This document shows, piece by piece, positions 1-6,331 of a stretch of DNA of 64,000 nucleotides. Below the pieces are notes generated by a model. It did no database searches. It was not told the origin of the DNA and saw nothing but the letters and a program-made list of their open reading frames with translations. Positions within the stretch are counted from its first letter, which is position 1; each line of letters begins with the position of its first letter. The translations under genes were made by a program, and so were the position numbers. Source of the stretch: an uncultured Acidobacteriota bacterium (GTDB taxonomy: Bacteria; Acidobacteriota; Vicinamibacteria; Vicinamibacterales; CAVVIG01); contig CAVQZZ010000001.1 in NCBI GenBank assembly GCA_963718825.1, positions 237,022 through 301,021 on the forward strand, given 5' to 3'.

Positions 1-432
1 CTCCGAGAGCGCAAGGAAGACCTGCCGCTGCTCATCCAGGCGTTCATCACCGAATTCAATCAGCGCAATCAGAAGAATATCGCCGGGGTCGATCATCAGG
101 CGATGCGTCTGCTCGAACACTACATGTGGCCGGGCAACGTGCGCGAGTTGAGAAACGTGATCGAGCGTGCGACGATTCTGGCGCCTGGGCCCTTCATCGA
201 AACCAAGCACCTACCGCCGGTTCTCAACGACGAGCGCCCCGCGCAGCATCAGCCGCAGGTGGCGCTCGCCCCGGGCACGACGGTGGAGGAAGCGGAGCGG
301 CGGCTGATTCTGATGACGCTCGAGCACACGCGCGACAACAAGACGCGCGCCGCCGAGATTCTCGGCATCAGCCTGAAGACGCTGCACAATAAGTTGAACA
401 AGCTGAGGCTGCGGCCAAAGAAGACGGAATAG
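1..432 (+). CDS. Sigma-54-dependent NtrC/Fis-family transcriptional activator, C-terminal part (5' end outside window)
   Basis: Frame 1 is open from base 1: LRERKEDLPLL...WPGNVRELRNVIERA (end of AAA+ domain) and NKTRAAEILGISLKTLHNKL (Fis-type HTH). Directly followed by a histidine kinase. Confidence 0.93.
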   Translation, partial: LRERKEDLPLLIQAFITEFNQRNQKNIAGVDHQAMRLLEHYMWPGNVRELRNVIERATILAPGPFIETKHLPPVLNDERPAQHQPQVALAPGTTVEEAERRLILMTLEHTRDNKTRAAEILGISLKTLHNKLNKLRLRPKKTE

Positions 433-433
433 A

Positions 434-475
434 CCACTAGCCACCAGCCACGAGCCACCAGCGACTAGCCACCGA
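434..475. repeat. Tandem heptamer array, CCACYAG-type, 6 units
   Basis: CCACTAG CCACCAG CCACGAG CCACCAG CGACTAG CCACCGA fills the intergenic gap. Confidence 0.85.
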
Positions 476-478
476 CTT

Positions 479-2332
479 ATGCGCTTAGGCATCAAAGGCA
501 AGCAGGTCTTCGGCGTGACCTCGATCGTTGGTGCGGTCGTCGTCGTGTTGAGCCTGCTGAACCTGGCGCGCCTGGGACGCGTCTCGCTCGAGGAGAGCGA
601 GGCGCGCGCGGACATGCTCGCGAAAGCCGTGTATCACCGGGCGCGGCAAGTGGTCGTCGAAGGCGTCGACCCGTACGTCGCACTGCGGAGCGATCCCGGT
701 CTGCGGTCCATTCTCGAATCCGCTCTCTATTCAAAGAATGTCACGTTCGCCGCGATCGTCGACACGAACAACATCGTGGTGACGCACGCGGACCGCTCCT
801 TCGAGGGACAGGTTCTCCCATCGGAGCCCGATCTGCCGACACAGCTCGCGCGGCCGGCGCTCGCCGAGCTCGTCGCGCTGTACACCGAACAGGGGCGCAA
901 CATCGAATACCGCCAGCCACTGCTCGTCGGCAACGTGCAGATCGGATCCATTCGGATCGGCGTGTCGACGCTGCTCATCCGGCAGGAGCTCGATGCTTCG
1001 CTCGGGCCCGCGGTCGCCACCGCATTCAGCGCGCTCGCCGTCGCGGTGCTCGTGGCGATGCTCCTGGCGCAGCTGCTGCTGCGTCCGATTCACGTCATCC
1101 GTTCGGGTTTGACGCGCCTCGGCAAAGGCGAATTCGGCGTGCGGCTCGAGCTCGATCAGGACGACGAGTTCGGCGAGCTCGGCACGTTTTTCAACACGAT
1201 GAGCGCGCAGCTGTCGGCGGATCGATCGCAGATGGCGGGACAGGTCGCGAATCTCGAATCGGCCGTCGAACACCTCGAGGACGCGGTGGCGATCGTCAGC
1301 CCGCGCGGCGATCTGCTGTTCGCCAACCCGGCGATGCGGACACTCGTGCCGAGCGCAAGGGTTGGCGTGTCGCTGAACGACGTGATTCCGGCGGACCACG
1401 GGCTCCGGCGCCTCGCCGAACAGACGCTCATGAGCCGTCAGTCGCGCGGCCCCGTGTCGGCCACATTCGAGTCGGGTGATCGTCTGGTGATGACCCACGC
1501 CGTCAATGATCCGAACGGTCAGCTCGTCGGGGTGATGCTGATTGCCCGCAACCTCGAATACTTGAGTGAAGTGCAGTCCACGATCCGGTATTCGCGAAAG
1601 CTCGCCGCGCTCGGACGGCTGTCGGCCGGCGTCGCGCACGAGGTGAAGAATCCGCTGAATGCGATGATGATTCATCTCGAGCTGCTTCGACAGCAGTTCG
1701 CGTCCACGGTGCGCCCGGCGCGGGCCGCGGTCGCGGGCGCAGGCCGCGCGGTCGTCACGGTCGCCGCGGGGCCGGTGACGGTTGAACCGGCACAGGCGCT
1801 GGCGCACCTCGACATCATCTCGAGCGAAATCAAACGGCTCGACGAAGTCGTGCAAGGCTTTCTGAAATTCACGCGGCCCGAGGATCTCAAGCTGCAGCCG
1901 GTTCAGCTCTCCGCGCTCTTCGACGAGATCGTTCCCATCGTCAGGCCGGAAGCGGAACGCTCGGGCGTCGAGCTGATTGTGGACAGCGCCAAGGCGCCCG
2001 ACGTCAACGGCGATCCGGCGATGCTGCGCCAGGCGTTCCTGAACCTCGCGCTCAACGCGTGCCAGGCGATGCCGAATGGCGGAACCCTGCGGATCACCTG
2101 CGAAGGGCTGCGCGGCCGCAAGGTTGCGATCTCGTTCGCCGACACAGGCGTCGGCATTAAGCCGGAGCACCTGCAGCGGATCTTCGATCTGTATTTCACG
2201 ACGAAGGAAAAGGGGAGCGGCATCGGATTGTCGATGGTGTATCGCACCGTGCAGATGCACGACGGCGACATCGAGGTGCAGTCGACGCCTGGGTCGGGAA
2301 CGACGTTCCGCGTGCAGCTGCCGCAAGCCTAG
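479..2332 (+). CDS. Membrane sensor histidine kinase (periplasmic sensor, HAMP, PAS-like, HisKA, HATPase)
   Basis: Two TM segments, HAMP (RPIHVIRSGLTRLGKGEF...DEFGEL), H-box AHEVKNPL, N-box NLALNACQAM, DTGVGI, YFTTK, GSGIGL. Confidence 0.95.
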   Translation: MRLGIKGKQVFGVTSIVGAVVVVLSLLNLARLGRVSLEESEARADMLAKAVYHRARQVVVEGVDPYVALRSDPGLRSILESALYSKNVTFAAIVDTNNIVVTHADRSFEGQVLPSEPDLPTQLARPALAELVALYTEQGRNIEYRQPLLVGNVQIGSIRIGVSTLLIRQELDASLGPAVATAFSALAVAVLVAMLLAQLLLRPIHVIRSGLTRLGKGEFGVRLELDQDDEFGELGTFFNTMSAQLSADRSQMAGQVANLESAVEHLEDAVAIVSPRGDLLFANPAMRTLVPSARVGVSLNDVIPADHGLRRLAEQTLMSRQSRGPVSATFESGDRLVMTHAVNDPNGQLVGVMLIARNLEYLSEVQSTIRYSRKLAALGRLSAGVAHEVKNPLNAMMIHLELLRQQFASTVRPARAAVAGAGRAVVTVAAGPVTVEPAQALAHLDIISSEIKRLDEVVQGFLKFTRPEDLKLQPVQLSALFDEIVPIVRPEAERSGVELIVDSAKAPDVNGDPAMLRQAFLNLALNACQAMPNGGTLRITCEGLRGRKVAISFADTGVGIKPEHLQRIFDLYFTTKEKGSGIGLSMVYRTVQMHDGDIEVQSTPGSGTTFRVQLPQA

Positions 2333-2336
2333 TTCG

Positions 2337-2973
2337 ATGGACGACATGCAACGAGCGGCCGACGAACACACGAGCAGGCGACGCCGCGGGCGTCTGCCGC
2401 GCGCCTGTGCGCGTGCTGGATTCTGGAGTGGCCTGTCGATTTGCGGATTGACTCTCGTCGGGTGCACGCATACGCAGGCGAAGACCGTGCCCGATACGCC
2501 GCTCGAGATGCCCGCGCCGCCGCCGCGCAACGTGGAACCGGTGGACGTGGAAACGCCTCAGCCAGTACCGCTGCCGGAGGAACCGGCGCGGCGCGCGCCG
2601 CCGCGACGTCCGCCGCCGCCTCGACCTGAACCGAAAGCCGACGTCAAACCCGAGCCGCCGAAGCAGGACACGCCGCCCGTCGATCCGCCGAAGCCGGTCG
2701 AGGAGACGCCCAAGCCTCCGACGCTTCAGATGACGCCGGCGGCGAACGAAGCCGAGCTCGAGCGATCCATTCGCGTCCACGCTGGCGCGCGCCAACACCG
2801 ATCTCAAGCGCGTGGATTTCGGCCGGTTGAACACGGACGCGAGAACGCAGTACGACTTCGCCAATCGGTACATCCAGCAGGCGGAGGACGCGCTCAGCAA
2901 AAAAAATCTGGTATTCGCTGAAGCGTTCGCGAAGAAGGCCGCCGACATCGCCGTTCAGCTCGCAGGCAAATAG
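2337..2973 (+). CDS. Proline-rich putative lipoprotein with C-terminal helical domain (one +1 frameshift near 2772)
   Basis: Hydrophobic stretch ending in lipobox-like LVGC, then about 90 aa of Pro-rich linker. After the frameshift the frame reads STLARANTDLKRVDFGRLNTDARTQYDFANRYIQQAEDAL...QLAGK* (TAG 2971-2973). Confidence 0.7.
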
Positions 2974-3071
2974 ACGGGGCCCTTGGTAGCCAGCTACTCA
3001 TTTGCCTGAACCGTACTGCCCACACTGCGCGTTCGAACACACTGATTGCCCGCTTCGGGCGCGAATTCGCG

Positions 3072-3087
3072 TGGCACCACGCTTGCT
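3072..3087 (+). promoter_or_regulatory. Sigma-54 (-24/-12) promoter
   Basis: TGGCAC-CACGC-TTGCT matches the TGGCAC-N5-TTGCW consensus with exact GG-N10-GC spacing; it lies just downstream of an NtrC-type activator operon. Confidence 0.8.
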
Positions 3088-3097
3088 CTTTAGGAGG

Positions 3098-3192
3098 TCA
3101 CCTCGTTCTTCTCGCAACCTGCGGGAGGACAAACGACCTTCTAACACCCTGCCTGTGCACCACGGGAGGCCGCCGAAAGGCAGCCTCCCACC
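3098..3192 (+). ncRNA. Candidate sigma-54-dependent small RNA or structured leader
   Basis: No credible ORF. Hairpin GTTCTTCTCGCA-ACC-TGCGGGAGGAC (3105-3130) and hairpin GGGAGGC-c-GCC-GAAA-GGC-a-GCCTCCC (3164-3189, GNRA loop). No U-tract after the last hairpin. Confidence 0.4.
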
Positions 3193-3201
3193 TGCCTAGT
3201 C

Positions 3202-3249
3202 CAGCCACATCTTGCGAGTGCCCTAAAACAGAGGCACAATATATGGTGT
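3202..3249 (+). promoter_or_regulatory. Tandem NrdR boxes
   Basis: CAGCCACATCTTGCGA (3202-3217) and GCACAATATATGGTGT (3234-3249) match the acaCwAtATaTwGtgt consensus, start 32 bp apart, and lie upstream of a ribonucleotide reductase. Confidence 0.88.
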
Positions 3250-3257
3250 TTACGCGC

Positions 3258-3286
3258 TTGACAAACCGGCGGGCCGGGCTCATATT
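3258..3286 (+). promoter_or_regulatory. Sigma-70-type promoter of nrdJ
   Basis: TTGACA (3258-3263), 17 bp spacer, CATATT (3281-3286), adjacent to the second NrdR box. Confidence 0.7.
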
Positions 3287-3460
3287 TGTCCGCCGAGTCC
3301 AACACAGCGAGCCGCGCCGGAATGCTCCCAGCGTCCTGCGTTTCGCTCGAAGATCCGGGCTCGAAGCGGCCAGTTTTTCCATATAAGTTCGACGCGTCTC
3401 GTGGGCCGGTGAAGGTCATCGATCCGAGGCCGGGCCTCGGAGTAAACGGAGTTGAGTCAA

Positions 3461-6329
<2,869 letters not shown>

Positions 6330-6331
6330 AC

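Follow-up and report, generated by a model that had tools for sequence, protein, structure and literature searches.

A predicted sigma-54-dependent small RNA gene between a two-component operon and nrdJ in an uncultured acidobacterium, with a candidate pairing site upstream of ftsE

Acidobacteria are among the most abundant soil phyla and, to our knowledge, their regulatory RNAs are almost unknown. Here, we consider a 64-kilobase stretch of the genome of an uncultured member of the Vicinamibacterales (assembly GCA_963718825.1, contig CAVQZZ010000001.1, positions 237,022 to 301,021; hereafter the window), in which an operon for a sigma-54 activator, a sensor histidine kinase plus a lipoprotein is followed by a sigma-54 promoter, a short stretch with two hairpins, and nrdJ. 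The question that this locus raises is what the promoter transcribes. A preliminary description, made from the letters of the window, had proposed a small RNA (sRNA) in the manner of the enterobacterial GlmY, or else a second promoter for nrdJ. We are fairly confident that an independent sigma-54 sRNA gene is present; the fuller reading, in which positions 3072 to ~3196 constitute a stand-alone gene for a regulatory sRNA of ~100 nucleotides (nt) that acts in the circuit proposed below, we regard as probable. The promoter, conservation, structure, single-copy status, synteny and complementarity of the element were established by computation. The genome under study is labeled G000, and other G and L labels denote related genomes and loci. 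The element comprises the following features.

3072 to 3087, forward strand: sigma-54 (-24/-12) promoter TGGCAC-N5-TTGCT, exact consensus, predicted start near 3098
3098 to 3196, forward strand: predicted small RNA of ~100 nt, its 5' end deduced from the promoter and 3196 being the end of the conserved tail
3107 to 3129, forward strand: hairpin 1, 9 base pairs (bp) with loop AACCU; 97.6% of cells paired in an alignment of 63 sequences
3149 to 3165, forward strand: a core (seed) that is conserved and largely unpaired; its complement in the ftsE leader, at G000:C2:180854-180870, lies beyond the window
3164 to 3189, forward strand: hairpin 2, with a GGGAGGC/GCCTCCC outer stem, a GCC/GGC inner stem and a GAAA loop; 96.4% of cells paired in the same alignment

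The promoter, TGGCACCACGCTTGCT at 3072-3087, starts 98 bp 3' of the operon and can be read directly where the preliminary description had placed it, about 100 bp after the operon. Such sites are rare; the window contains a single exact match to TGGCAC-N5-TTGCW against an expectation of 0.02, any match occurred in only 2 of 100 shuffled sequences, and the whole genome contains 12 exact matches as compared to 3 for a backwards control pattern. Thirty-five other relaxed sigma-54-like sites are present in the genome, many of which, judged by eye, run directly into a Shine-Dalgarno sequence and a start codon; among the relaxed sites, the promoter at 3072-3087 alone is followed by a hairpin of the GGGAGG/CCTCCC type. 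The rpoN gene is present as three adjacent frame-broken pieces (234.7, 143.6 and 38 bits), together with 34 Sigma54_activat pieces that represent ~30 activators, one of them encoded in the adjacent operon.

The stretch that follows the promoter is structured. Positions 3097-3200 fold with -41.8 kcal/mol (z = -4.18), a stability reached by none of 200 shuffled sequences, and hairpin 2 is succeeded by a C-rich tail (3190-3196) that lacks a U-tract. Besides the core and the 3' tail, the RNA also carries a AACCTTCC stretch. A sigma-54 box and a similar two-hairpin sequence were found after the lipoprotein gene in four related loci, which come from three genera within the family and from a sister family, and a covariance model (R1) was built from five RNAs (alignment A1) with the promoters excluded; R1 scores 103 bits at window position ~3091-3199. 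Because the promoter did not enter the model, the presence of a sigma-54 box next to R1 matches counts as independent evidence. The box lies 4-8 nt upstream of the model start in all 46 long-form matches that were read (31 + 2 + 13), in the form TGGCA[CT]-N5-TTGC or a one-base variant thereof, and is found at the same distance upstream of all 17 short-form matches that were read, which are described below.

The base pairing is preserved among these sequences. When the 46 long and 17 short forms were aligned, 90.9% of cells paired, as compared to 51-60% when the partners were slid relative to each other, 18 of the 23 pairs had changed on both sides, and none of 500 shuffles equaled the observed structure score; for 31 long forms considered separately, 92.5% of cells paired against 50-57% with slid partners. 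Most of the covariation resides in hairpin 1, where six of the eight modeled pairs have changed on both sides across the 63 sequences (one pair is encountered as UA 20, CG 19, GC 9, UG 8 and GU 6 times), so that the compensatory changes looked for in the hairpins are indeed present. In hairpin 2, both-side changes affect four of the seven pairs; its outer stem is near-invariant in the long form and changes in register in some short forms. Judged by eye, the aligned copies share neither a start codon nor a reading frame, and their length differences are not multiples of three, which leaves standing the earlier characterization of the stretch as two hairpins devoid of a plausible open reading frame (ORF). 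A small ORF at 3002-3199 (65 amino acids) was rejected, as it spans the promoter and as insertions and deletions in the loops of the hairpins disrupt any common frame.

Infernal searches of positions 2800-3600 returned no Rfam match at E up to 10, and thus none to the GlmY or GlmZ models, in keeping with the preliminary suggestion of an uncharacterized RNA. No Rfam family, Pxr included, matched the window RNA, three other long forms or 11 short forms; under permissive settings, 14 related loci yielded only chance microRNA-like matches outside the RNA, and four ftsE loci yielded none.

Where, then, does this RNA occur? Of 118 genomes of the same family, R1 matched 56; in 43 of these the match reached E <= 2.4e-7, with one copy each except for G064, which has two. 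Among genomes sampled from the order, 8 of 151 were matched, all in families f1 and f8, and none of 150 other genomes sampled from the phylum was. Among the genomes searched, the RNA family is thus confined to two Vicinamibacterales families. Both copies in G064 are full-length long forms with sigma-54 boxes (C76:16760-16869 and C58:99751-99860). A core-plus-stem pattern search in named genomes gave 92 stretches; at least 24 strong R1 matches are among the 80 listed, 23 of the 24 being titled Acidobacteria or Vicinamibacter-type metagenome-assembled genomes (MAGs) and one a Chloroflexi MAG, with no cultured isolate among the strong matches in these 80. A full-score long sRNA (92 bits) is carried by a contig labeled Chloroflexi (L252), which is possibly a mis-binned acidobacterial contig.

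The preliminary description had staked its proposal in part on conservation, and the promoter and both hairpins are kept at the syntenic place in related genomes. Across 31 loci, the kinase gene lies upstream in 31, the lipoprotein gene upstream in 30 and nrdJ downstream in 30, all on the same strand; one of the 31 loci ends before nrdJ. The RNA is single-copy in G000 both by R1 and by blastn, for which positions 3060-3200 retrieved only themselves, the next best match being 21 nt long. Short tandem repeats fill the spacers downstream of the RNA in L049, L056, L058, L068 and L069, and repeats of the same kind lie upstream in L062 and L063, with GGTGAGTTG-like and TGCTGGGTGC-like units; a run of the heptamer GCTGATA is found at the lipoprotein 3' end in L062.

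In addition to the long form, 17 short-form paralogues of 83-95 nt were found at other genomic places, each of which shows the same succession of sigma-54 box, hairpin 1, C-rich linker and hairpin 2. In at least six loci, the short form is followed within ~40 nt by a convergently oriented gene for an outer-membrane receptor. That short paralogues often face convergent genes argues that the family consists of stand-alone RNAs rather than of nrdJ leaders. The short forms (L076-L090; for instance L086:1501-1583, and L081 at 1501, 6379 and 6767) carry a ACCCACCCC-type linker in place of the ftsE-complementary core; their neighborhoods include DUF1003, TonB-dependent receptors, PagL and hybrid kinases, and G111 bears three copies on one contig. 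Just after one short form, a palindromic, GC-rich hairpin with runs of A and T on its flanks (L089:1597-1667) could be a bidirectional terminator; it is the sole canonical terminator-like site seen beside any member of the family.

What might such an RNA act upon? When exact complements of the 103-nt RNA were counted genome-wide, the longest, at 17 nt, linked the core (3149-3165) with a stretch of the gatB-ftsE spacer that lies 25-41 nt ahead of the ftsE start. The product of this gene scores as FtsE (282.6, above the cut-off of 264.85), with ftsX as the next gene; FtsEX is an ATP-binding cassette (ABC) complex that governs cell-wall hydrolysis at division. When the family's 30 best FtsE loci were compared, those from genomes with the long RNA had the site in 16 of 17 cases, as compared to 3 of 13 for genomes without it. 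With 27 further leaders added, four of which were picked because a pattern search had already shown the site and which bias the sample to that extent, the site precedes ftsE in 25 of the 38 RNA-bearing genomes that were read, and in most site-bearing genomes it ends 1-4 nt before the GTG start. In most of the 13 RNA-bearing genomes devoid of the site, ftsE begins at the gatB stop or immediately behind it and has no leader.

The core and the site appear to have changed together. Counting Watson-Crick matches, 23 of the 25 site-bearing genomes keep the core with one mismatch or none, as compared to 3 of the 13 that lack the site; a contrast within a single genus (g16: G079 and G084 as compared to eight others) is included in these counts. 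In G097, the core carries a U-to-C change opposite an A-to-G change in the site, and in G121 and G079 a change in the site leaves a G-U pair. These patterns suggest, at somewhat better than even chances, that ftsEX is a true target of the RNA, which would pair with the leader and alter its use in vivo. A genome-wide RNAduplex comparison of the linker with 6,446 crude start regions was discarded as non-discriminating in favor of the count of exact complements, the reversed linker performing as well (for instance, 2,582 against 3,168 regions at <= -24 kcal/mol).

The ftsE leaders themselves (G000:C2:180827-180920; L093-L141, L157-L164) possess an extended -10-like promoter of their own, TGnTATAcT; the conserved leader begins with CTCC(T/A), and one type of leader places the Shine-Dalgarno sequence within a hairpin loop closed by CCGGGG/CCCCGG. 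An Hfq-like match elsewhere in the genome (G000:C2:339159-339290) scores 49 bits, below the cut-off of 61.7, over model positions 16-59.

Given a promoter of this kind, we looked at the sequence upstream of it, where two candidate sites for an activator overlap.

2963 to 3008, no strand assigned: inverted repeat of the preliminary description, with arms CAGGCAAAT at 2963-2971 and ATTTGCCTG at 3000-3008
2985 to 3001, no strand assigned: candidate activator-binding site, a GGTAG-N4-CTAC dyad plus a CTAC(C/A)CAC-type box, centered ~106 bp before the predicted start

The inverted repeat is present at the positions given for it earlier, and its proposed role as the activator site was rejected for want of conservation: the arms match at 6 of 9 positions in a same-genus sister genome, and in other genera the left arm corresponds to coding sequence, since it is the end of the lipoprotein reading frame. 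The dyad GGTAG-N4-CTAC, at 2985-2997 in the window, is a better candidate to which an activator might bind. Of 33 loci, 22 have a [CT]TAC[CAT][CT]A box positioned 77-123 bp upstream of the -24 box, and in 8 of the 33 this box forms a GTAG-N4-CTAC dyad, as compared to at most three loci for any 4-mer dyad in 50 shuffles. As the long form is never found apart from the activator operon, the adjoining activator is the obvious candidate regulator, and it likely controls the RNA gene.

Taking the above observations together, a model for the locus can be formulated, in which we infer transcription of the RNA, its control by the adjoining two-component system, and its pairing and effect in vivo. The periplasmic Cache kinase, probably aided by the co-transcribed lipoprotein, would phosphorylate the NtrC-type activator; the activator would bind upstream of the promoter, with the GGTAG-N4-CTAC dyad at ~-106 as the best candidate site, and open the sigma-54 promoter. 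The resulting RNA would fold such that two hairpins frame a C-rich single strand, from which the core 3149-3165 could pair with the 5' leader of ftsEX. As the site reaches the start codon in most genomes, pairing there would cover the region to which ribosomes bind and reduce the synthesis of FtsEX; in G000, where the site lies 25-41 nt upstream of the start, the effect could go in either direction.

Several observations weigh against this model and are collected here. With respect to the RNA, alignments A2 and A3 were fitted to the model and hence favor the structure, which makes the slid controls the fairer comparison; the +1 and the 3' end are predictions; a search for sequencing runs for positions 2300-3700 listed none, a result that has no bearing on expression; and no canonical terminator follows hairpin 2, so that transcription could read through into nrdJ. 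With respect to its control, the long form always lies beside both the operon and nrdJ, so that synteny cannot assign it an owner; the same operon, beside nrdJ, occurs in many genomes without the RNA, and this, together with the ~30 activators of the genome, means that adjacency is no proof of control. With respect to ftsE, 8 of 200 dinucleotide-shuffled RNAs reach a complement of at least 17 nt somewhere in the genome, which renders the match, taken in this genome by itself, only modestly unusual, the comparison across genomes being the stronger evidence. The site is present in at least eight genomes without a detectable RNA (G022, G065, G066, G087, G105, G110, G123 and G008), and a relaxed search for the RNA in five such genomes gave E = 0.19 at best; the conserved 18-nt site, being kept in these genomes without the sRNA, may have a function of its own. 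Conversely, G007, G125 and G128 keep the canonical core without the site. If genus groups are taken as the units, related genomes not being independent, the core has drifted in 0 of 13 groups with the site and in 3 of 6 without (Fisher p ~0.02, a rough value from hand arithmetic). In family f8 (G031 and G214), no FtsE orthologue above 47% identity was found with the query used, and other sites complementary to the core there are not adjacent to ftsE.

The most serious competitor to a stand-alone gene follows from the features that separate the RNA from nrdJ.

3205 to 3250, no strand assigned: two NrdR-box-like palindromes before nrdJ (~3205-3220 and 3235-3249), compared by eye with the NrdR box consensus
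3258 to 3286, forward strand: sigma-70-type nrdJ promoter TTGACA-17-CATATT, 10 of 12 consensus matches
3461 to 6205, forward strand: nrdJ, encoding a class II, B12-dependent ribonucleotide reductase, the next gene downstream (Ribonuc_red_lgC 2.5e-140, Ribonuc_red_2_N 1.8e-20)

On this account, the sigma-54 promoter would mainly be a second, signal-controlled promoter of nrdJ, the hairpins would form the 5' leader, and the transcript would cross the NrdR operators. Such a role could coexist with release of the sRNA by processing or partial termination. It draws on the position of nrdJ downstream on the same strand in 30 of 31 loci, and on the terminator scan, which found no stem plus U-tract after hairpin 2, as the preliminary description had remarked of the last hairpin, nor a conserved one in 31 relatives. 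The distance from the RNA tail to the first NrdR-like box is also as short as ~8 nt in G000 and G112. Elsewhere, however, this spacer extends to more than 150 nt and is occupied by unrelated repeats, and nrdJ has a promoter and operator block of its own (~3204-3312) that recurs at 73-88% identity in 18 of 29 related loci, some of which lack the RNA; the nrdJ upstream region holds two promoter-like sites against 0.2 expected. In a cis-acting leader or riboswitch, no promoter would intervene before the gene, whereas here the RNA is separated from nrdJ by the conserved sigma-70 promoter and operator block. Short paralogues of the same architecture that face convergent genes, and a core complementary to the leader of another gene, also speak against a leader of nrdJ, and we consider this account unlikely. 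A more elaborate scheme, which we deem quite unlikely, would combine both outcomes into a division brake tied to the supply of DNA precursors: the envelope-sensing kinase and lipoprotein would induce an sRNA that covers the ribosome-binding region of ftsEX, and NrdR occupancy would decide whether transcription stops, releasing the sRNA, or reads on into nrdJ, such that one promoter couples ribonucleotide reduction to division.

A different possibility is that the RNA binds or sequesters a protein, as GlmY and CrcZ do, without base pairing, and that the complementarity to ftsE is a conserved coincidence. The closest analogues by gene arrangement include decoy RNAs, at least as GlmY is portrayed in the cited passages (PMC7073468, PMC6075780), and the repeated C-rich motifs and two invariant GGGAGG stems of the RNA would suit such a role, as would the modest significance of the match in a single genome and the occurrence of the ftsE site without the RNA in at least eight others. 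Against it, the complement involves the most conserved unpaired stretch of the RNA and adjoins a start codon, the core has drifted where genomes lost the site, a compensatory change is observed in one case, and no protein partner was suggested by the analyses made; we thus hold this possibility to be very unlikely. That the two hairpins are merely a dispersed repeat resembling repetitive extragenic palindromic (REP) elements, beside a chance promoter-like match, is scarcely credible, since the RNA is single-copy by blastn and R1 and the promoter is kept in 46 of 46 copies. A stand-alone sRNA gene that would act by pairing with the ftsEX leader thus remains the reading that we prefer.

The operon upstream of the RNA is made up as the preliminary description had read it, with a sigma-54 activator, a kinase and a lipoprotein recognizable from domain matches and a lipobox.

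1 to 432, forward strand: 3' end of the gene for the sigma-54 activator, an NtrC-type response regulator (AAA_lid_14 1.8e-30, HTH_8 7e-13)
479 to 2332, forward strand: sensor histidine kinase with single-Cache, HAMP, PAS, HisKA and HATPase_c domains, by Pfam matches
2337 to 2973, forward strand: lipoprotein gene, whose product has a signal peptide with a lipobox (LVGC), a linker rich in proline and, at its C-terminus, a conserved helical domain

The whole activator gene begins upstream of the window (~L091:4081-5454), and the full protein carries Response_reg, Sigma54_activat (3.5e-72), lid and HTH_8 domains. In NCBIfam, its best match is AtoC, at 478 bits and below the cut-off of 714, with GlrR at 347 against 763; the best match of the kinase is AtoS, at 271 against a cut-off of 646. 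Kinase orthologues are present in 34 of 41 genomes searched, G000 counted. The lipoprotein is intact in eight aligned relatives, where it spans 190-213 amino acids with an invariant lipobox Cys. Four intact orthologues gave no Pfam match beyond noise at E up to 1, eight orthologues no convincing NCBIfam match, and a profile search no PDB chain.

In G000, the lipoprotein stop codon occupies 2971-2973, and the frame is broken near 2780-2812, where the ORFs 2076-2921 and 2812-2973 lie in different frames. The assembly is rich in errors and 67.66% complete; bamA (L091:5-1812) and rpoN (G000:C1:1735658-1737046) are also split. As would be expected of a long-read assembly, these broken frames are best taken as assembly errors rather than true pseudogenes. 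At the end of the nrdJ frame (3452-6205), an overlapping ORF (5892-6329) takes over, and the TSCPD domain match is only partial; the nrdJ end (5890-6330) is possibly another one-base assembly error.

How does this locus compare with systems already described? As far as can be judged from sequence, the RNA is a real, conserved and previously uncatalogued sigma-54-dependent sRNA gene of a known kind of arrangement, with predicted expression; the putative ftsEX link, the short paralogues and the candidate activator site are newly described here. A literature search on Acidobacteria, small RNA and sigma-54 retrieved nothing related, and another, limited one retrieved no statement of sRNA control of ftsEX, which is no proof of absence from print. 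What emerges is a complete and testable candidate circuit, consisting of a two-component system with a lipoprotein, a textbook sigma-54 promoter, a covarying RNA and a specific site in the ftsEX leader.

The nearest parallel by logic is the QseE(GlrK)/QseG/QseF(GlrR) system of Enterobacteriaceae, in which, according to the cited passages, the regulator activates the glmY gene from a sigma-54 promoter via upstream sites, and which serves envelope homeostasis (PMC6075780, PMC12691602, PMC8745638). As described in those passages, an sRNA gene adjoins the genes of a histidine kinase, of a lipoprotein with an accessory role and of a sigma-54 response regulator, as is the case here. The earlier analogy to this system stands as far as the arrangement is concerned, whereas no part of the window locus belongs to those families: the RNA has no Rfam match, the activator scores 347 against the GlrR cut-off of 763, and the lipoprotein matches no family in Pfam, NCBIfam or the PDB. 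The window kinase carries Cache and PAS domains, and the order here is regulator-kinase-lipoprotein-sRNA as compared to glmY-qseE-qseG-qseF. GlmY is, from what these sources state, a protein decoy, unlike the window RNA with its candidate base-pairing target.

In myxobacteria, the gene for the sRNA Pxr, which measures ~108 nt and forms several stem-loops, follows directly upon nla19, the gene of a sigma-54-dependent response regulator, and has a predicted sigma-54 promoter, a fixed syntenic place and paralogues in some genera, as set out in PMC5568312; its targets are given as unknown in a passage of PMC11928866. The likeness to Pxr as so described extends to size, stem-loops, sigma-54 promoter, position after a regulator gene, synteny and paralogues. 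Pxr differs in coming from another phylum and in that its Rfam family does not match the window RNA; moreover, the kinase and lipoprotein genes here lie between the regulator gene and the RNA.

Sigma-54 sRNA genes beside the gene for an NtrC-type activator are also exemplified by CrcZ, after cbrAB in Pseudomonas, and by Qrr, with LuxO in Vibrio. CrcZ, at ~400 nt, sequesters Hfq/Crc, and the Qrr RNAs are Hfq-dependent and have canonical terminators. The CbrAB system is treated in a review (PMC8871633). By Rfam, neither CrcZ nor Qrr shows a sequence relation to the window RNA. If the proposed pairing holds, the few sRNAs whose genes lie next to that of their sigma-54 activator would gain a base-pairing member.

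With regard to the proposed target, DicF acts on ftsZ. EcpR1 of Sinorhizobium is presented, in the part of the source cited, as an sRNA that acts on cell-cycle genes (PMC4414408). In common with these RNAs, so far as those accounts go, the window RNA would be a trans-acting sRNA that, under stress, pairs with the mRNA of a division or cell-cycle gene in its translation-initiation region; it would differ in having ftsEX as its target, and it differs in promoter type and phylum. If borne out, the locus would provide a case of post-transcriptional control of ftsEX, and the drift of the seed where the target site is lost would represent a natural experiment in the co-evolution of an sRNA and its target.

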